This document shows positions 122 through 43,470 of a stretch of DNA of 55,120 nt, piece by piece; within the stretch, counting starts at the first letter, position 1, and every line of letters begins with the position of its first letter. The notes beneath the pieces are model-generated. The model had not been told where the DNA came from, did not search any database, and saw only the letters and a list, made by a program, of their open reading frames with translations. The DNA comes from an uncultured Thermotogae bacterium (GTDB lineage: Bacteria > Bipolaricaulota > Bipolaricaulia > M55B111), in assembly GCA_964649445.1 (NCBI GenBank), contig CAZYPS010000001.1, positions 1 to 55,120 of the forward strand, in the 5' to 3' direction. The position numbers and the translations under genes were made by a program.

Positions 122-208
122 CCCCCTTGACGCTTACCTGGCTGCCGGGATTTGGCATATGTTAAACCTTTTAAGGTCAAATCAGTTGCCAGGTAAGCGT
201 CAAGGGGG
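122..208 (-). repeat. Dispersed long-hairpin repeat, copy H1 (perfect 21-bp arms 122-142/188-208, 45-nt loop)
   Basis: The arms cccccttgacgcttacctggc and gccaggtaagcgtcaaggggg are exact reverse complements. The loop is 38/45 identical to the reverse complement of the H2 loop (14889-14933). The arm shares cttacctggc with the rnpB P12 arm. Strand is assigned relative to the rnpB copy (TGATTT right after the 5' arm) and is tentative. Confidence 0.8.
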
Positions 209-1698: not shown

Positions 1699-2037
1699 TT
1701 CCTTCACCTCTGGATTATAACTGGATTTAATCATAAGTTAGTTACAACCAGAAGGCAAAAAAGTGACGGAAAAATGAGCTTTAACTACATCAAAAAAAAG
1801 ATTTGTTCTTTATCGAAAAGTTTCAGGTGGTCCATAACCCCGCTCAGAGGGACCTGGTTTGTAGAAAAATATTTGGTTTCAAGGGTTCAAATTAGAAAAG
1901 TCCCCCTAAGGTATTATAGAAGAGTATTTGAGTTCTGCTAAATTAAAGTTAAACCCCATGATTCAGGTCCCATGACTAATCAGAGTGGTTAGTCGAACTT
2001 CAATAAAAAATGAGCTTTCCGATTAATCCACTAAATT

Positions 2038-2069
2038 GAGGTTAAATCGGTTAAAGGGACCAGGTAAGT
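2038..2069 (-). repeat. Truncated half copy (H6) of the dispersed hairpin repeat
   Basis: The minus strand reads cttacctggtccctttaaccgatttaacctc. This contains the arm motif cttacctgg plus gatttaacct, which is identical to H2 (14893-14902). I found no matching 3' arm nearby. Confidence 0.5.
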
Positions 2070-2347: not shown

Positions 2348-4657
2348 ATGGCCGAAAGCCCGAAGAAAGAAATGGAGTTAAAGGTGGCAGGTGCCAATCA
2401 GCAGGACTTCGGTAAAGGGGTTGCGAGGGTTAGTACTGACAGCATGAAAAAGCTGGGAATATCCCGCGGTGATATCATAGAAATTGAGGGGAGCGATAAA
2501 ACTGCCGGTATAGCAGTAGAGGGATATTCTCAGGACAAGGGGCTGGATATAATACGAATTGACGGACTGATGAGGAATAACGCCGGCACGAGCATTGGGG
2601 ATCAGGTCAAGATAAGAAAGGCAGATGTAAAAGAAGCGAAAAAAGTGACCATTGGTCCGGCTTCCGATAATTTAAGACTAAGGGGAAGTGGCCAGAGCTT
2701 GAAACAGGTTTTGGGTGGTAGGCCGTTGACGAAAGGCGACGTTCTTTCTACTACGATAAGACGTTCTAAAAGCCCGTTCGGTTCGGATTTGATGTCCGAG
2801 AGTTTCTTTAAGGACTTTCTCGACTCCAGTAGCTTTGGCCTGGGGGAGATACGGCTCCAAGTACTCGGTACGAGTCCCAAGGGCATCGTAAAAGTGACCG
2901 GGAATACACAAATTGAGTTGAAGCCGGAATACGAAGAGGTCGAAGAAGGAGAAAAGTACGTTGGAGTTACCTACGAGGATATAGGCGGGCTCGACGAGAT
3001 CCTGCAAAGGATACGAGAAATGGTCGAACTACCGCTGAAAAACCCCGAATTATTCGACAGGCTGGGAATCGACCCACCCAAGGGCGTCCTCCTCCACGGA
3101 CCGCCGGGGACTGGTAAGACACTCCTGGCTAAAGCAGTTGCGAACGAAACCGACGCCCACTTCACCTCGATAAACGGTCCGGAGATAATGAGTAAATATT
3201 ACGGGGAATCGGAACAGCAGCTCAGGGAGATCTTTGAAGAAGCTTCGGATAACGCCCCGGCGATAATCTTCATAGACGAGCTCGACTCTCTCGGTGTAAA
3301 ACGGGAAGAAGCTTCGGGAGAGGTTGAACGGAGAGTCGTAGCTCAGCTCCTGGCATTGATGGATGGGTTGAAACCCCGGGAGAACGTCGTAGTAATTGCC
3401 GCGACAAACCGGGTAGATGCAGTAGACGAGGCTTTGCGAAGACCCGGCAGGTTCGACCGAGAGATCATGGTTGGGGTTCCCGATACCGAGGGAAGGAAAG
3501 AAATATTCATGATCCATACACGAGGAATGCCGCTGGCAGAGGACCTCGACCTTGACGAGTTTATTGAACTTACCTACGGGTTTACCGGGTCTGATATCGA
3601 AGCACTGGCTCGGGAATCGGCAATGAATGCGCTTAGGCGATTGTTGCCGGAATTAAATCTGGAGGAAGAGTCTATTCCGGCAGAGAAGCTGGAGAAGCTG
3701 GAAGTTACCAGGCAGGATATGTTCGAGGCCTACAAAGGTATAGAACCCAGTGCTTTGAGGGAAGTACTCGCCGACGTGCCCCAGGTGAGCTGGGAGAATG
3801 TAGGCGGGCTCGAAGAAATAAAGCAGACGATGTCCGAGATAATAGAGTTGCCGCTCAAAAATCCCGATTCGTTCCGAAGGATCGGAATTGAGCCTCCAAG
3901 AGGGGTCCTGCTTTATGGACCTCCAGGAACAGGGAAGACGCTTATGGCAAAGGCTATCGCCAACGAGAGCAACGCGAACTTTATTACGGCAAAGGGAAGT
4001 GATCTCCTCTCGAAATGGTACGGGGAATCCGAACAGAGAATAGCTGAAGTTTTTGACAAGGCAAAGCAGGTCTCTCCGGCGATCATATTCCTTGACGAGC
4101 TGGACGCTCTGGCTCCTGAAAGAGGAGGCGGAGCGGGTGAGCCGAGGGCGACGGAGCGAATAGTCAACCAGCTGTTGTCAGAAATGGATGGCCTGGAAGA
4201 GTTACAGGGGGTCGTAGTAGTAGCAGCTACCAATAGACCTGACATGGTTGATTCGGCTCTTTTACGACCGGGAAGGTTCGACGAACTGATTCACGTCCCC
4301 GTGCCTGATAAAGAGGCAAGGTTGAAGATTTACGAGGTTCACACGGATAACATGAATCTCGAACCCGGGATCAATCTCGAAAAATTAGCTGATCTCTCCG
4401 ATAACTTCACCGGCGCTGATATTGCTGCGGTCTGTAAGAAGGCAGGCAGGTTTGCGCTGCGTGAGGACGTGGACTCGCAGTTCGTTCGCATGGACCATTT
4501 TCTTGCAGCGATTGACGATACGCCGGCTTCAGTGACTTCGGACGCGAGGAAACGTTATGAGAATATCGAGAGGCGTCTCAAGGAAAAATCGGGCAACATC
4601 GGGTTCAAGCCGGAATCAGAAGAAACCGACACACCCGACATAGAGGAATCCAATTAG
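2348..4657 (+). CDS. cdc48: CDC48/p97/VAT-type AAA+ ATPase (N-domain plus two AAA modules)
   Basis: 769 aa. The N-terminal segment is CDC48-N-like ([26 protein letters not shown]). There are two Walker A motifs ([17 protein letters not shown] and [17 protein letters not shown]), two Walker B motifs (IIFIDELD and IIFLDELD) and second-region-of-homology motifs. The start is ATG behind GAGGTGA. Confidence 0.9.
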
Positions 4658-4678
4658 CGGAAATCTCACCTTTCCGCT
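4656..4678 (+). terminator. Hairpin overlapping the cdc48 stop codon (weak terminator candidate)
   Basis: agcggaaa-tctcacc-tttccgct forms an 8-bp stem. The downstream tract is taaaaagtttctc, which is not a clean U-run. Confidence 0.25.
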
Positions 4679-4768
4679 TAAAAAGTTTCTCGGTCAAAAG
4701 TTTGTGATATAAAGGCTTATCCCCTATAACTGTCGAAACATCAATTTTTCTCGGAGGATGATCGTGAC

Positions 4769-6526
4769 TTGTTAAGGACTAACCGTTGTGGTGAACTGAG
4801 CGAAGAAAATCTGGGCGAGTCGATGACGCTTGCAGGCTGGGTTACGAATAGACGGGATTTGGGTGGTTTGCTCTTTATCGACCTTCGCGATAGATCCGGA
4901 ATAGTTCAGTTGTTGTTTACTCCGGAAAGAGGGGAGCTCCACGAACGGGCTGGAGACCTGAACAGGGAAGACGTGATAAAGGTAGAGGGGACAATTATCG
5001 AACGGGGCGAGAACAATATCAATCCCAGACTTGATACAGGAACGATCGAGCTGGAAGTGGAAGAGATGGAGATATTGAATTCTTCGGAAAACCTCCCGTT
5101 TTCCCCTGCGGACGGTCTGGAAGTGAACGAGAATACCAGGCTGAAATACCGCTATCTGGACCTGCGAAGGGATCAGATGAAGGACAATATCGAACTAAGA
5201 CACAGGGTTTTCAAAATAATAAGGGATTATTTCGACGAAGAAGGATTTTGGGAAGTCGAGACGCCCGTACTTACGAAAAGTACACCTGAGGGTGCCCGAG
5301 ACTTTCTCGTTCCTTCTCGGTTGCACAACGGTAAGTTCTATGCTTTGCCTCAGTCGCCTCAGCTGTTCAAACAGCTTTTCATGATAAGCGGGTTTGAGAA
5401 GTACTTTCAGATAGTTAAATGTTTTCGGGACGAGGACCTCAGAGCCGACAGGCAGCCGGAATTCACCCAGCTGGACATGGAAATGTCGTTTGTGGATGAA
5501 GAGGACGTTATTAAAATCACCGAGGGTATGGTAAAACGAGTATTTGACGAGGTACTGGACCTGAATCTTGAACTTCCTCTTCGTCAGATGACTTACGAAG
5601 CGGCGATGAACCGCTACGGATCGGATAGGCCCGACCTCAGATTCGGTCTGGAGCTGGTTGATCTCTCCAGCCAGGTGGAGGACTCGAACTTCAACATCTT
5701 CTCTGGAACGGTTGAAGATGGAGGAGTGGTAAAAGGTTTATGTCTCAGCGATCCTAAGGACTATAATAGGTCTCAGCTTGATTCCCTTGAAGATTACTCA
5801 AAAGATCTTGGAGCCAAAGGTCTTCTCTGGGCAAGAGTGAATGAGGACGGACTGGATGGGCAATTTACGTCCCACCTGACGGAGGAGACCGAAGAATCGA
5901 TATTAGTTGAACTAGAGGCGGAGCCCGGCGATCTGGTCTTTATAGTAGCTGATTCCCGGGAGATGGCGAACGAGGTGCTGGGAGGACTCCGGTTGAAGCT
6001 GGCGGAGGAAAACGACATGATTCCGGATAACCAGTGGGAATTTACCTGGGTAAGGCGGTTTCCACTATTTGGCACTGACGAAGCCGGAAACCTCACTTCG
6101 GAGCACCATCCATTTACCTCACCGAAGGACGAAGACGTGAAAAAACTCAGTGAAAATCCTCTTGAAGTTGATGCAAAAGCCTACGACCTGGTTCTAAATG
6201 GAATAGAGCTGGGCGGAGGAAGTATAAGGATTCACGACCGCGACCTTCAGCAGGATATATTTGATGTGCTGGGCATTTCACGGGAGGAAGCCCAGGAAAA
6301 GTTCGGGTTTTTCCTGGATGCCCTCAATTACGGAGCCCCGCCCCACGGAGGAATTGCGCTTGGTTTAGATAGATTAGCAATGTTGCTGGCCGGTGAGGAC
6401 AGCATTAGGGACGTAATAGCCTTCCCCAAGACCGGTATGGCTCAGTCCCCTTTAACCGGGGCCCCTATGGAGGTCTCCGAGAAACAACTTGACGAACTCG
6501 GACTTAAAGTCGACAAAGAGGACTGA
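4769..6526 (+). CDS. aspS: Aspartyl-tRNA synthetase, bacterial type
   Basis: 585 aa. The N-terminus [25 protein letters not shown] matches the canonical AspRS start. Class II motifs are present ([34 protein letters not shown]). The start is TTG, 11 nt after GGAGG. Confidence 0.95.
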
Positions 6527-14714: not shown

Positions 14715-14871
14715 GGCGGTACGTTTTAACCGATTCGCCTTTTCGTTGAAATCGCCTGGTGATTCTCGGAAAATAACTTGTTCATCGGTCTATAAGGTTA
14801 AGTTTTCTGCCGCAATTGGGTGGAAACGAAATTTAGTTTATGGGTAATGGCTTAATTACATCTTATAACCT

Positions 14872-14950
14872 CCTGTCGCTTGCCCGGCCACTGATTTAAC
14901 CTAAAAAGTTTTAACATTTGCCAAATTCCGGTAGCCAGGCAAGTGGTAGG
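14872..14950 (+). repeat. Dispersed long-hairpin repeat, copy H2 (17-bp arms with 3 G-U pairs on the + strand, 45-nt loop)
   Basis: The arms are cctgtcgcttgcccggc and gccaggcaagtggtagg. The loop is the reverse complement of the H1 loop (38/45 identical). TGATTT follows the 5' arm, as TGATGT does in rnpB P12. Confidence 0.8.
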
Positions 14951-15052
14951 AAGCAGGAAGGGAACAAAACTAAGTGAGGCGGCGTTAAATAGGTGGGTGA
15001 CAATGACTTTCCAGTCCCGGAGAGACGGGGATAAATGTAGGGAGAAGAAATA

Positions 15053-16571: not shown

Positions 16572-16950
16572 GAAGGGGAAGAGGAAGTCGCGACCTTTTG
16601 GTCGAGGAAAGTCCGGACTCCACAGGGCGGGTTGCTGGTCGATGTTCACCAGCTAAGACCAGAGCCGGTGACGGCTGGAAAGTGCCACAGAAAAGAGACC
16701 TCCAGCACTTACCTGGCACTTGATGTTCGTAAAAAGCTTAACCTTTAACTTTCAGTGCCAGGTAAGTGCTGGAAAGGGTGCAACGGTGAGGTAAGAGCTC
16801 ACCGCTTCAGTCGCGAGGCTGAAGGCAGGGCAAACCCCGACCGGAGTAAAGCCAAATAGGGAGGTATGGAGTTGCCCGCTCCTTTAACCTCCGGGTAGGC
16901 TGCTTAGATAGATGGCTTCCTAACACAGGATCCGGCTTAACTTCCCCTTC
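16572..16950 (+). ncRNA. rnpB: RNase P RNA, bacterial type A
   Basis: The universally conserved blocks are read directly: GAGGAAAGUCCGGACUCC, AAAGGGUGCAACGGUGAGGUAAGAGCUCACC, AAAGCCAAAUAGGGAGG, CCGGGUAGGCUGCUUAGAUAG and ACACAGGAUCCGGCUUA. P1 pairs gaaggggaag (16572-16581) with cttccccttc (16941-16950). The overlapping track ORFs are spurious. Confidence 0.92.
16701..16773 (+). repeat. Copy H3 of the dispersed hairpin repeat, forming helix P12 of rnpB
   Basis: A 19-bp perfect stem tccagcacttacctggcac / gtgccaggtaagtgctgga with a 35-nt loop. It sits between the J11/12-like ACAGAAAAGAGACC and GGAAAGGGUG, which is the P12 position. Confidence 0.8.
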
Positions 16951-17061
16951 ATCTCTTCTATAGGCTTGCCTGGAATGAAGAACTTCGAACAAAACAACGG
17001 GGCTTGGAGAGATATATTTTAAGTAATTTTTTCGGGTTTTTACGAATCAAACCCAGCATCC

Positions 17062-18269: not shown

Positions 18270-19682
18270 TTAAACTTCGAAGGACTGTTCGAACGCGTAG
18301 CCGGCCCTGAGGATTTTCTTTTCCGCCAGACTTTCACCCATGATCTGTAAACCAACGGGCAATCCTTCTACTTCCCCACCAGGTACGGACATAGCTGGGA
18401 TTCCCGCCAGATTGACCGGGACTATGAATATATCGGAAAGATACATCTCCAGCGGATCCTCGATCTTTTCGCCGATTTTGAACGCCGGAGTGGGTGAGGT
18501 CGGTGCCACTATTAGATCTACCTCATCAAATGCTTGATCGAAGTCTCGTTTTATAAGCCGACGGGTCTTCTGGGCTTTGCCGTAGTATTCGTCGTAATAA
18601 CCGGCTGATAGGGCATAAGTTCCGAGCAATATTCTTCGCTTAACCTCGGGCCCAAAACCTTCGTCCCTGCTTCTGGAAAACAGCTCCTCAATTGAATCGG
18701 TGTCGGCTCTACTGGTATACCTTACTCCGTCAAACCTTGCGAGGTTGGCGCTTGCCTCGGAGCTGGCAATTATGTAGTACGTTGCGATTGCGTATTCCGA
18801 GTGAGGCAGTGATATTTCCGTTACTTCCGCTCCGAGGTTCTCGAATGTTTTCCTCCACTTTTTGGCCTTGTCCTGAATTTCGCTATCCAGTTCTTCCCCA
18901 AAATATTCCTTCGGAAGTCCGATCCTCAGCCCTTCTATTCCCCTGTCAATTCCTTTTGTGTAGTCATAGGTTTCTTCCACCGCGGAAGTGGAATCCATCT
19001 CGTCATGTCTGGCGAGATAATTGAGCAATAAGGCCGAGTCATAAACGTCTTTAGTAATCGGTCCAATTTGATCCAGCGAGGAAGCAAAAGCCGTTAGGCC
19101 ATATCTGGAAATCAGGCCGTATGTCGGTTTCAGACCGACGACACCACAGAAAGCGGCCGGATGCCTGACAGAACCGCCAGTATCGGAACCGAGTGCGTAG
19201 ACCGCTTCATCGGCCGCAACAGCTGCTGCGGACCCTCCGGACGAACCGCCAGGTACCCGGGAAAGATTTGCAGGATTCCTCGTCGTTTGAAAATAGGAAT
19301 TTTCTGTCGAGGAACCCATGGCAAATTCGTCCATGTTGGCCTTGCCGAGTATTGGTGAGCCGGCTTCCTTGAGGGTTTTCACCACCGTAGCATCGTAGAC
19401 GGAGTCGTAGTCCTCTAAAAATTTCGATCCACAGGTAGTCCTGAAACCAAGAGTTTGTATGTTATCTTTTATTGCTCCGGGAATACCTTTCAGCGGACGG
19501 TCGATAAGTTCTCGGGCTTTTTCCAGTAGGTCGTTTCTGTTGGCAAGCTCCAGATAAGCCTGAACGTCTGACTCGCTATCGTCAATTTCCTCAAATAGGT
19601 CATTGATGAGTCTTTCCAGTTTTTCCGGGGACTCCTCCAGTAAATCTATTAATTCGTGAAGTGTAAGTTCGTTTAATGAGAT
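18270..19682 (-). CDS. gatA: Glu/Asp-tRNA amidotransferase subunit A
   Basis: Amidase signature GGSSGGSAAAVA and NMDEFAMGSSTENS. The frame is open 99 codons upstream of the track start and encodes (M)SLNELTLHELIDLL...GIPGAIKDNIQTLGFRTTCGSKFLEDYDSVYDATVV, which is collinear with GatA N-termini. The only plausible initiator is the ATC at 19682-19680, 8 nt after GGGAGG. Confidence 0.88.
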   Translation of the reverse strand: MSLNELTLHELIDLLEESPEKLERLINDLFEEIDDSESDVQAYLELANRNDLLEKARELIDRPLKGIPGAIKDNIQTLGFRTTCGSKFLEDYDSVYDATVVKTLKEAGSPILGKANMDEFAMGSSTENSYFQTTRNPANLSRVPGGSSGGSAAAVAADEAVYALGSDTGGSVRHPAAFCGVVGLKPTYGLISRYGLTAFASSLDQIGPITKDVYDSALLLNYLARHDEMDSTSAVEETYDYTKGIDRGIEGLRIGLPKEYFGEELDSEIQDKAKKWRKTFENLGAEVTEISLPHSEYAIATYYIIASSEASANLARFDGVRYTSRADTDSIEELFSRSRDEGFGPEVKRRILLGTYALSAGYYDEYYGKAQKTRRLIKRDFDQAFDEVDLIVAPTSPTPAFKIGEKIEDPLEMYLSDIFIVPVNLAGIPAMSVPGGEVEGLPVGLQIMGESLAEKKILRAGYAFEQSFEV

Positions 19683-21679: not shown

Positions 21680-21732
21680 CCCTTCTTACCTAAAACTTTC
21701 TGGAACATCGAAGTTGTAAATTTCAAATTTAA

Positions 21733-21760
21733 ATGTCCTGGAAAATATGTCCTGGAAAAT
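21733..21760. repeat. Perfect tandem duplication, 2 x 14 nt (atgtcctggaaaat)
   Basis: Read directly: 21733-21746 equals 21747-21760. It lies 54 nt downstream of the tRNA-Ala 3' end. Confidence 0.9.
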
Positions 21761-22108
21761 TCAGGGTATTAGTTTGAGTTTGATATAACCTAAAGTGCCC
21801 TTTATTGGGAAGTTCTAATATAAAACTGATTTAGTAAGCTAATTGCTTTTTCGTTGTTCGAGGAATCAAAAACGATGAGACTCTCGGCTTCTCTTAATAC
21901 CGTTTGGAAAGAGAAGCGGGAAATTGGAAAGGTTCCGGAGGCCGGGAAGCTCTGGAAACACAGGCGGGTCCTGTGAACCACCGCTTACCAGATTGGGGCA
22001 TATTTTAGCCTCTATAGAAGTAGTTACTATCCTGACGTTTTACATCGTCGCTTCGGTGATCACAGGAGACCACCCCCTTTTCATCACCGAAATTAGCCGA
22101 GAATGCTC

Positions 22109-22220
22109 TCCAGCACCCACTTTAGTATTGACCACGAGCGGAGATAAATAATTACAGCTGGAGTTTTTCGCTGTAAATCAAAACCCATAACCGCTCGTAG
22201 ATACTAAAGTGGGTGCTGGA
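22109..22220 (-). repeat. Dispersed long-hairpin repeat, long variant H4 (112 nt, rod-like)
   Basis: The outer 20-bp perfect stem is tccagcacccactttagtat / atactaaagtgggtgctgga. There is an inner 8-bp stem acgagcgg/ccgctcgt and an apical 7-bp stem ttacagc/gctgtaa. It shares the tccagcac...gtgctgga termini with rnpB P12 and the 10-mer tgtaaatcaa with H5. Confidence 0.75.
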
Positions 22221-22556
22221 TCTCGAGTTTTCGAAGAAGGTGGCTTTTTGGTTGAAATAGTTTTGTTATAAGCCCCGACCGGAAGTGCGGGGAAATTGAC
22301 TCCTTTCTTCTTCCTTCAGCTCAATTCCAGCAGTATATCGTATAACTTCGAGTGATCAGGGGGGACAGATTTATAAAGGTTAGTTTAATTTCAGTTCGAC
22401 CGGACCGTGGTTCATACCTAGATGGGGGTTGAAAGGGGGAATATAATTAAATGAAGTAAAAAAGGTCCTTTACAGATAAATTGATTTTTGGTTTTTTCGA
22501 TTTATCCTGGGCTGATATATTCTCGGCTTTACATTGATGCTTAACCATCTATATTC

Positions 22557-22675
22557 CCACCCAGGAAGGGAAAAGTCGATTGGGAAAGGTTTTCCGGGCT
22601 GGGGTTTCTGCCTCCTTCCCCAGTTCGGTTTTTCCCTCCCAACTCGGCTGAGGGCCCTATTCCCGACCTGGGTGG
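22557..22675 (+). ncRNA. Candidate structured RNA: 119-nt extended stem-loop of four coaxial helices
   Basis: Hand-paired helices: 22557-65/22667-75 (9 bp), 22568-72/22660-64 (5 bp), 22577-84/22638-46 (8 bp plus a bulge) and 22594-604/22618-28 (11 bp, two G-U pairs that would be C-A on the other strand). Confidence 0.3.
22594..22633 (+). terminator. Terminator-like hairpin plus T5 on the + strand in a region with no credible gene
   Basis: ccgggctgggg-(13 nt)-ccccagttcgg followed by ttttt. No + strand CDS lies upstream, so it would terminate a noncoding transcript if functional. Confidence 0.35.
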
Positions 22676-22757
22676 AACATTGAAATGCACTCTATAATAT
22701 CAAACCGAAACTAGGTCGATCAACCTGATAGGGAAAGTTTTTAACTATAGTAGTGAT

Positions 22758-43332: not shown

Positions 43333-43379
43333 ACTGGATCTGTCAATTACCCCGCACCAAACTGATTAAGGGATTTCCT

Positions 43380-43451
43380 CCAGCACTTACTGTGCACTTT
43401 GGGATTGAACTAATAACTATGATTGTAAATCAAGTGTCAAGTAAGTGCTGG
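43380..43451 (-). repeat. Dispersed long-hairpin repeat, copy H5
   Basis: The arms ccagcacttactgtgcac / gtgtcaagtaagtgctgg give 12 bp, a 2x2 mismatch, then 4 bp. The outer 12 nt are identical to the rnpB P12 arm. On the minus strand the loop begins ttgatttaca. Confidence 0.75.
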
Positions 43452-43470
43452 CGGACTTCTTGGACAATAT

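Follow-up and report, generated by a model that had tools for sequence, protein, structure and literature searches.

The RNase P RNA gene (rnpB) on contig CAZYPS010000001.1 of an uncultured bacterium of the Bipolaricaulota (assembly GCA_964649445.1) carries a long perfect hairpin at the tip of its helix P12, and sequence resembling the hairpin arm recurs in the surrounding DNA, which raises the question of what kind of element this hairpin is and how it relates to the other copies. The stretch analysed, hereafter the window, comprises 55,120 nucleotides, and an earlier note on it had assigned P12 and five further hairpins to one dispersed family. Our analysis indicates that the distal part of P12 is likely an insert of the intervening sequence (IVS) type, belonging to a widespread family of palindromic hairpins that is tolerated at the helix tips of stable RNAs. 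The family has a base YCCAGCAC...GTGCTGGR, a strictly complementary, variable stem of 13-20 bp and interiors of discrete sizes. The evidence comes from the structure of the hairpin, family membership, host sites, antiquity in the clade, loop homology across hosts, flipped interiors and a presence/absence polymorphism at one site.

The P12 extension and its counterparts

The window gene was matched by the Rfam model RF00010 over the full model (positions 1-367) and is a type-A RNase P RNA, as the earlier note had read it (Table 1). It lies between a PPC-domain gene and mraY, an order which is the same in relatives. In the Rfam alignment the model is matched except for the segment after ACAGAAAAGAGACC, which extends the tip of P12 as a long insertion. 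This insertion forms exactly the perfect stem and 35-nt loop previously described from the letters, with an RNA fold of -41.1 kcal/mol (z = -9.0 against dinucleotide shuffles). Profile hidden Markov models (HMMs) for both hairpin families treated here were built without any window sequence, and the short-class model of the YCCAGCAC family recovers P12 with 19.2 bits (nhmmer, E = 1.2e-4). As in IVSs, the terminal loop of a peripheral helix is replaced with the conserved core intact, and complementary termini form an extended stem-loop. The host gene is rnpB and not 16S or 23S rRNA, the host expected of an IVS, and we therefore use the label "IVS-like" and regard rnpB as a new host for this kind of element. 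Concerning known RNA families, Rfam searches at both gathering and E-value thresholds returned only rnpB, tRNAs and sub-threshold miRNA and snoRNA noise, and no assignment of the hairpins was retained. One P12 arm, CTTACCTGGC (16709-16718), equals the 5' end of the eukaryotic U1 snRNA, and the opposite arm (16756-16766) contains what we take to be the consensus 5' splice site (CAG/GTAAGT); the resemblance is almost certainly coincidental, the palindrome being short.

Syntenic loci were fetched through the neighbouring mraY, and rnpB was found in seven lineages besides the window (MraY identity to the window 55-74%). All eight genes carry an extended P12 opening with CCAGCAC and closing with GTGCTGG, approximately 117 nt long in six of them (with a stem such as CCAGCACTTACTTTAGTAT) and approximately 80 nt long in the window and in the metagenome-assembled genome (MAG) GSL3510_5. 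Since all eight carry it, the extension is ancestral to the clade, and on this ground both a recent insertion into P12 and an artefact of assembly are ruled out. The extension itself looks vertical; the interiors occur in two forms, of about 71 and about 110 nt, which are non-homologous or flipped between lineages, having been replaced, shortened or inverted, and the family is also present in distant lineages. For instance, two closely related rnpB genes (L130 and L132) are identical at 38/40 and 37/40 flanking positions, and their P12 interiors agree at 87/109 positions when one is inverted (z = 8.3) vs 78/112 in direct alignment (z = 2.9). Interiors are also flipped between Tobar and L130 and between ERZ and JBKHGT.

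These flips bear on the alternative in which the longer P12 serves this halophilic clade as a functional expansion segment of RNase P RNA, for example as a protein dock or a stabiliser, with one trans-acting factor binding the conserved duplex base in all hosts. Fixation in all eight lineages across this range of MraY identity speaks for it, as do a base sequence conserved across hosts and environments and the discrete size classes, with a conserved apical mini-hairpin in the long class. Retained expansion segments are moreover documented for 5S rRNA, and computation cannot tell retention from excision (PMC7812874). We nevertheless consider such a function rather unlikely, given that P12 interiors are non-homologous between lineages and that they flip between close relatives inside rnpB, which argues against a strand-specific function of the loop. 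A common recognition site, if any, could only be the conserved stem base. Most copies, furthermore, lie in non-coding DNA with no evidence of transcription there.

The recurrence of the P12 arm in the window also holds, with four matches at no more than three mismatches against none expected, and every hairpin that had been listed is present where it was placed. When a hairpin is defined as CCAGCAC...GTGCTGG within 40-130 nt with 5/6 of the next positions paired, the window holds three YCCAGCAC hairpins, vs 0 in 300 dinucleotide shuffles, the control that the earlier note had named. Besides P12 these are the intergenic H43379 and H22109, and with P12 as query further copies outside rnpB were found in Tobar (L074:243-352) and GSL3510_5 (L005:3476-3585). 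H43379 aligns with P12 over 23 nt at 91% (blastn-short, E = 0.004), covering the arm and the first loop bases, and is recovered by the short-class model (nhmmer, 15.5 bits, E = 1.8e-3; fold z = -5.8); its loop is unlike that of the window's own P12 (z = 0.1). The orthologous spacer of GSL3510_1 (L004 4436-4540) lacks it, so this copy is dispensable in a relative, a further point against a common function. H22109 scores 27.9 bits (E = 2e-7) with the long-class HMM, and its loop is homologous to the P12 loop of ERZ rnpB once the stems are stripped (z = 5.7-6.3). A non-genic copy, L145, is 92.8% identical to H22109, with the flank in opposite orientation. Similarly, the loop of the intergenic hairpin in Tobar and GSL3510_5 matches the P12 loop of JGI082 rnpB (z = 4.0-5.4). 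In these loop comparisons 19 nt (window and relatives) or 17 nt (cross-host set) were stripped per side, and z refers to alignment versus shuffles.

A hairpin family in rRNA, RNase P RNA and non-coding DNA

Metagenomes were scanned with pre-specified arms, namely the degenerate base CCAGCACYYAMYT, a gap of 40-100 nt and then ARKTRRGTGCTGG. This led to at least 122 hairpins in at least 120 stretches, vs a rough chance estimate of 2-4. According to Rfam, representatives of the set lie within genes for bacterial LSU rRNA, SSU rRNA and RNase P RNA. Judged by their flanks, at least 20 of the matches listed lie in rnpB, at least 15 in 23S and at least 5 in 16S rRNA genes and at least 82 elsewhere, and in the last group 47 of the 51 copies with enough distance to the contig ends to be evaluable are outside long open reading frames (ORFs). 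The rnpB hosts include several lineages that are 72-74% identical to the window rnpB over the alignable parts. The rRNA sites were mapped onto one E. coli rrn operon, and the helix names are our own assignments based on standard E. coli numbering (Table 1). The same base and stem architecture is thus found at 23S and 16S IVS sites, a correspondence set by site and not by published IVS sequences. Among the matches listed, sizes fall into three classes (66-73, 98-114 and 119-124 nt), and P12 (71 nt) and H22109 (110 nt) each fit one of them; of 98 non-redundant copies, about 92 have a Y-R pair next to the base.

The relationship extends beyond the stem. The loops of two 23S helix-25 hairpins (L100 and L195) are homologous to that of the JBKHGT rnpB P12 (z = 7.2-8.1) and to that of H22109 in the window (z = 5.6-6.0), and they also link to the non-genic copies L121 and L145. 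This long-class subfamily shares the apical mini-hairpin TTACAGC...GCTGTAA across hosts. The cross-host loop homology indicates that whole hairpins, and not a stem motif alone, are common to rRNA, RNase P RNA and non-coding DNA.

The breadth of the family also weighs on two other explanations. That chance similarity or an assembly artefact placed a repeat within rnpB has a negligible probability: palindromes are easily misassembled and the sequences are MAGs or metagenome contigs, yet this architecture recurs in the syntenic rnpB of eight assemblies that are independent and come from different sites, which excludes the assembly chimera raised earlier, and neither the window census (0/300 shuffles) nor the yield of the metagenome scan is matched by chance. 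It is also very improbable that rnpB is the source from which P12-derived hairpins were copied to other places in the genome. The intergenic copies do carry the whole P12 helix, down to the pair beside its CC/GG base (TCCAGCAC...GTGCTGGA), and match the P12 interiors of other lineages' rnpB; on the other hand rnpB flanking sequence is absent beside them, only about one in six sampled copies among the matches listed is in rnpB, and distant lineages outside the Bipolaricaulota have the family too, both in non-coding DNA and in genes for 23S and 16S rRNA. The origin in P12 that the earlier note had offered is unlikely as a general one, given that these hairpins are also present in the rRNA of such lineages, and for the two intergenic copies of the window the direction of copying is undecidable.

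The arms carry the signature of a DNA palindrome. At stem positions 8, 9, 11 and 12, where pairing is unforced, 403/408 cells are Watson-Crick with zero G.T among the matches listed, and in the same set further stem positions stay paired with many pair types. A structured RNA would tolerate wobbles and mutually templating DNA arms would not, hence the absence of G.T (G.U in RNA) points to a constraint at the DNA and not the RNA level, again contrary to a functional expansion segment. The arms YCCAGCAC.../...GTGCTGGR agree with the terminal inverted repeats of a miniature inverted-repeat transposable element (MITE). Direct repeats of at least 5 nt were found in 7% of 98 non-redundant copies, vs 2% in a mismatched-flank control, with no consistent length or sequence; a classical MITE with target-site duplication was therefore rejected. 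Longer ORF-bearing versions of the S23p type were not found in the sequences examined, with no genome-wide search made, and the "long" pattern matches are pairs of neighbouring hairpins or one 302-nt ORF-less hairpin.

Other mobile elements were compared and rejected. Integron attC sites carry R''/R' boxes (RYYYAAC...GTTRRRY), extrahelical bases and imperfect pairing and occur in cassette arrays. AAC/GTT boxes fit at most 29/102 of the present hairpins, the stems are perfectly paired without bulges, and the hosts are rRNA and rnpB, not cassette arrays. Target motifs of the IS608/ISDra2 type (TTAC, TTGAT) beside the stems are short strings and nothing supports them. A phage-borne element was rejected as well, as IMG/VR viral contigs gave one and zero matches and the family is essentially absent there.

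Concerning the mechanism, the family behaves as a selfish or neutral DNA palindrome. It persists in non-coding DNA and at the peripheral helix tips of highly expressed stable RNAs, replacing the terminal loop (helices 9/10, 25, 45 and 98 of 23S rRNA, helix 6 and V2 of 16S rRNA, P12 and a putative P9 of rnpB). The insert entered P12 before the sampled Bipolaricaulota lineages diverged. Turnover at the DNA level followed, with exchange between copies, short vs long interiors and a centre that was inverted, probably when the arms recombined or the template was switched from one to the other. Once transcribed, a perfect duplex of at least 20 bp would stand atop the native P12 base (CC/GG with an AA bulge) and leave the catalytic core untouched. 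We would regard the P12 element as neutral or selfish and not functional for RNase P. Copying may proceed by recombination or template switching, or by a trans-acting enzyme recognising the conserved base; a nuclease or a mobilising enzyme might recognise this base, or the base might just supply homology for recombination. By analogy with IVSs, RNase III may cut the P12 duplex and leave the RNase P RNA nicked or split in P12, an outcome to which we give about an even chance, the alternative being a retained expansion segment. More tentatively, and in our opinion doubtfully, a single family may move, in distant bacterial lineages, between helix tips of 16S, 23S and RNase P RNA and non-coding DNA, served by a dedicated recognition system (a mobilising enzyme or a processing nuclease), with RNase P RNA made in pieces.

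Several points weigh against an IVS-type insert. Excision, retention and neutrality of the P12 insert are all matters that we infer, and the link to classical IVSs is one of site, architecture and size, not of sequence. The P12 extension is fixed in all eight lineages, which fits a useful expansion too and is unlike the sporadic IVSs of rRNA. Neither a target-site duplication (98 copies) nor a mobilising enzyme (sought without a genome-wide search) was found. Additionally, the host proportions in the metagenome scan describe a sample and not a census, and the search pattern fixes 13 nt per arm, so that conservation there is not measurable from these hairpins.

Table 1. Features of the window and host sites of the YCCAGCAC hairpins in rRNA.
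Feature	Position	Strand	Details
rnpB, bacterial type-A RNase P RNA (host gene)	16572..16954	+	Rfam RF00010, 245.8 bits, E = 7e-79
P12 extension, short-class YCCAGCAC hairpin	16701..16773	+	Perfect 19-bp stem 16701-16719 / 16755-16773, 35-nt loop
5' half of the conserved family base, T-CCAGCAC	16701..16708	+	Partner GTGCTGG-A at 16766-16773
CTTACCTGGC, mid-stem of P12	16709..16718	+	Partner GCCAGGTAAG at 16756-16765; identical to the 87-nt repeat core
H43379 (43380-43451), intergenic short-class YCCAGCAC hairpin	43376..43455	none	Between two + strand ORFs
H22109 (22110-22219), intergenic long-class YCCAGCAC hairpin, 110 nt	22106..22223	none	Apical mini-hairpin TTACAGC...GCTGTAA
Member of the abundant 87-nt hairpin repeat	122..208	-	21-bp perfect stem, 45-nt conserved loop; nhmmer 71.1 bits, E = 3e-21
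H14872, diverged member of the 87-nt repeat	14869..14954	+	nhmmer 48.7 bits; loop z = 8.0
Candidate truncated half-copy of the 87-nt repeat, CTTACCTGGTCCC...GATTTAACC	2036..2069	-	Marginal: nhmmer 8.5 bits, E = 0.09, HMM positions 12-39
23S hairpin site	E. coli about 130-178		Helix 9/10
23S hairpin site	E. coli 540-553		Helix 25
23S hairpin site	E. coli 1164-1185		Helix 45
23S hairpin site	E. coli 2789-2821		Helix 98
16S hairpin site	E. coli 71-100		Helix 6
16S hairpin site			In V2

Some hosts hold more than one member. The rnpB gene of a different lineage (L094:4187-4741) has two family hairpins, one in P12 (4426-4516) and one in a second helix (4547-4644), where it replaces the tetraloop of the helix preceding P12, which we take to be P9; in type-A RNase P RNA the L9 loop normally makes a tertiary contact. 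A 16S gene (L149) likewise contains a 68-nt member at the helix 6 position (4411-4478) and a 302-nt member in V2 (4568-4869). Family hairpins of 67 nt (CCAGCACCCAACTTTCTC...) occur in L125, L129, L152, L164, L175, L194, L196 and L200, and this group is flanked by a 14-nt inverted repeat, CACCCAACTTTGKT...AMCAAAGTTGGGTG, that partly repeats the hairpin's own arm CCCAACTTT, i.e., the palindromes are nested. Nesting is also seen in Tobar (L074:190-400) and GSL3510_5 (L005:3440-3650), where the CCAGCAC hairpin lies within a larger conserved unit. A 17-bp inverted repeat, TTCTCTGGTGATTGTTC...GAACAATCACCAGAGAA, encloses this unit, and in it the two genomes differ by one compensatory change (G>A / C>T). 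The unit may represent a composite palindromic element or else a structured RNA that lacks annotation.

In the window, H22109 lies in approximately 1.08 kb of ORF-poor DNA (21680-22757) between tRNA-Ala(GGC) and an NTP-transferase gene, a spacing of only 13-100 nt in the relatives L072, L078 and L081. The same region holds another long inverted repeat (22557-22575 / 22657-22675) and a motif, GCCCCGACCGGAAGTGCGGGGAAATTGAC (22273-22300), that recurs near the same tRNA in Tobar (L074, ~525-556), and it looks like a tRNA-adjacent non-coding insertion or mosaic. Finally, a gatA-like amidase ORF on the minus strand (18270-19385) encodes 371 aa from the first possible start, vs 455-473 aa in syntenic relatives, and approximately 500 nt upstream of it have no assigned feature; a frameshift, a sequencing error or a pseudogene is possible.

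The 87-nt repeat of halophilic Bipolaricaulota

The mid-stem of P12 is shared with a separate repeat. A scan of the genome collection with the pattern CTTACCTGGC N{25,55} GCCAGGTAAG matched 71 stretches, 62 of which come from four hypersaline Ca. Bipolaricaulota MAGs (approximately 46 copies in GSL3510_1, 8 loci in GSL3510_5, 10 copies in DAL-Ass_33 and 1 in Tobar), while the other nine are scattered in other phyla with other spacings, near the estimated chance level. The Bipolaricaulota copies are uniform, with 64-65 nt core to core and an asymmetric 44-45-nt loop (AACTGATTTAACCTTAAAA...GAAATCCCGGCA). Their inner pairing GATTT/AAATC covaries to GATCT/AGATC, and the outer stem of approximately 11 bp, pyrimidine-rich on one arm, varies in sequence with pairing kept in 86-97% of cells, vs 57-89% with shuffled partners. 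The flanks are repeated mosaic modules (one side approximately 70 nt, the opposite side approximately 40 nt), and relative to them the loop is found in both orientations, with 275 same-orientation and 188 flipped BLAST pairs (e.g., L016:2139-2203 vs L001:5523-5587). A hammerhead-like CUGAUGA...GAAA in the loop was dropped, since the core is not matched and Rfam gave no match.

Two window hairpins clearly belong to this repeat, namely the copy at 122-208 (loop z = 9.6; fold z = -10) and H14872, which align over 63 nt at 86% with the loop included (blastn-short, E = 3e-10). H14872 lies inside a block of approximately 220 nt that is missing from the Tobar ortholog, a presence/absence polymorphism. 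The copy that had been reported at 2056-2068 exists as sequence, its membership being marginal, and H43379 is not significant with the 87-nt repeat HMM. The six hairpins previously placed in one family therefore separate, by HMM and by loop-only tests, into two.

We consider it improbable that P12 was colonised by this local repeat, an element like a repetitive extragenic palindrome (REP) or a MITE, and that P12, the copy at 122-208, H14872 and the rest form one family. In favour of this idea, the repeat is truly abundant, lineage-specific and presence/absence polymorphic, P12 holds the exact 10-nt core on both arms, and it scores 19.2 bits (E = 4e-5) with the repeat HMM. That score, however, derives from 20 core positions that P12 contains and that had served to ascertain the repeat family, and loops were therefore tested alone. 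The P12 loop compared with the repeat loop gives z = 0.8-1.3 (65/300 and 27/300 shuffles were equally good), vs 8.0-9.6 for real members, and the argument that the earlier note had drawn from TGATTT and TGATGT in the loops fails because this similarity is not significant. P12 has 37 nt between the cores and not the uniform 44-45 nt of the repeat, its outer part is the CCAGCAC base and its flanks are the rnpB core, and it shares with the repeat solely the 12-nt stem segment CTTACCTGGCA on each arm. The P12 loop is homologous instead to that of GSL3510_5 (z = 4.1), and the CCAGCAC base and the extended P12 are common to all eight lineages, with mid-stems in the relatives that differ from the repeat core.

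The mid-stem itself differs in the window. Its sequence CTTACCTGGCAC corresponds to CTTACTTAGCAC in GSL3510_5, where CTTACTTAGC / GCGAAGTAAG stand at the core position and match the repeat core at 8/10 positions on each arm. The state CTTACTTAGCAC is also found in the unrelated metagenome hairpins L123 and L163, among the matches listed, and is probably ancestral. The window thus differs by two base-pair changes, both towards the core of the abundant repeat, a shift that coincidence may explain, as may a short tract of gene conversion, the latter fitting a contribution of the repeat. Of the colonisation first proposed for P12, membership in a dispersed family has stood, while its identity with the local CTTACCTGGC repeat and its recent date have not.

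Implications and comparison with known systems

IVSs in rRNA have been known since 1990 and have so far been treated as a peculiarity of rRNA. The P12 insert would extend this selfish kind of rRNA insert to another essential RNA, RNase P RNA, and the present family adds to it a host range (the same hairpin family in RNase P RNA and rRNA), a non-genic pool (many copies outside known RNA genes), a recognition handle (a terminal sequence conserved across hosts) and dynamics at the DNA level (flipping centres, strict Watson-Crick arms and presence/absence at orthologous sites). The origin and movement of IVSs can hence be approached through a genome census and through the biochemistry of one defined motif. 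RNase P RNAs that are extended or fragmented in nature are predicted, which bears on the discontinuity that the specificity domain tolerates; if a moving family with its own recognition system does exist, RNase P RNA would be cut in P12, and sometimes in a second helix, like 23S rRNA at IVS sites. In practical MAG annotation, models of rnpB, 16S and 23S are inflated or broken by inserts of this kind.

In the searchable literature, outside which much of the older subscription literature lies, IVSs are reported in 16S and 23S rRNA only. The same literature, which leaves out most subscription journals, gave no IVS-like element in RNase P RNA, no fragmented RNase P RNA, no CCAGCAC motif and no precedent in the RNase P of Bipolaricaulota. 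Bacterial IVSs at 23S helices 9, 25 and 45 are extended stem-loops that have taken the place of a tetraloop and that RNase III cuts out, the ends not being rejoined (PMC4990558). The present family resembles the IVSs of Salmonella, Yersinia, Campylobacter, Leptospira, Coxiella and alpha-proteobacteria in that an inverted-repeat stem-loop replaces the terminal loop of a peripheral helix in a stable RNA. It occupies their canonical sites, 23S helices 9, 25 and 45 and 16S rRNA (PMC4990558), its size of approximately 70-120 nt is similar to that of short ORF-less IVSs, and in both cases there is evidence of transfer between sites and lineages. It differs in that RNase P RNA is among its hosts (in P12 and, for one lineage, in a further helix), in that many copies lie outside known RNA genes and in that distant hosts share a conserved terminal sequence. 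Within this clade P12 carries the insert in a fixed and not a sporadic manner, and an ORF of the S23p kind is absent.

The separate 87-nt repeat is closer to REPs and bacterial interspersed mosaic elements and to MITE-like elements (Correia, ERIC, PATE), with tens of intergenic copies per genome, a long palindrome (imperfect to perfect), mosaic flanks and presence/absence polymorphism. It is distinguished from them by a loop that occurs in both orientations relative to the flanks and by being specific to halophilic Bipolaricaulota. Concerning P12 itself, Vioque reportedly described in 1997 short tandemly repeated repetitive (STRR) heptamers in P12 of the RNase P RNA of heterocystous cyanobacteria, and the statement of the earlier note that repeat invasion of P12 is known from this case alone agrees with the searchable literature. 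In both instances the distal P12 of a type-A RNase P RNA, a dispensable part, is taken up by genomic repeats with function kept. STRRs are short tandem heptamers, whereas the window P12 is a palindromic hairpin with inverted-repeat arms, and no tandem heptamer periodicity is visible when 16701-16773 is read directly. The closest relatives of the window, moreover, place its organism in Ca. Bipolaricaulota.

Expansion segments of bacterial and archaeal 5S rRNA, some of which are retained in the mature RNA (PMC7812874), are likewise sporadic loop insertions in a small stable RNA, with possible horizontal spread and related intergenic motifs (PMC7812874); the host RNA is a different one and no sequence relationship has been demonstrated. 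Finally, Rickettsia palindromic elements (RPEs) are a dispersed palindrome tolerated inside essential genes: R. bellii has 526 of them, 53 of which lie inside protein-coding genes, with a single one in the gene of a stable RNA, tmRNA (PMC1458961). They have no sequence relationship with the present family. RPEs are restricted to one genus and lie mostly in protein-coding and intergenic DNA, whereas the YCCAGCAC hairpins span many environments and lineages and are strongly associated with the helix tips of rRNA and RNase P RNA.

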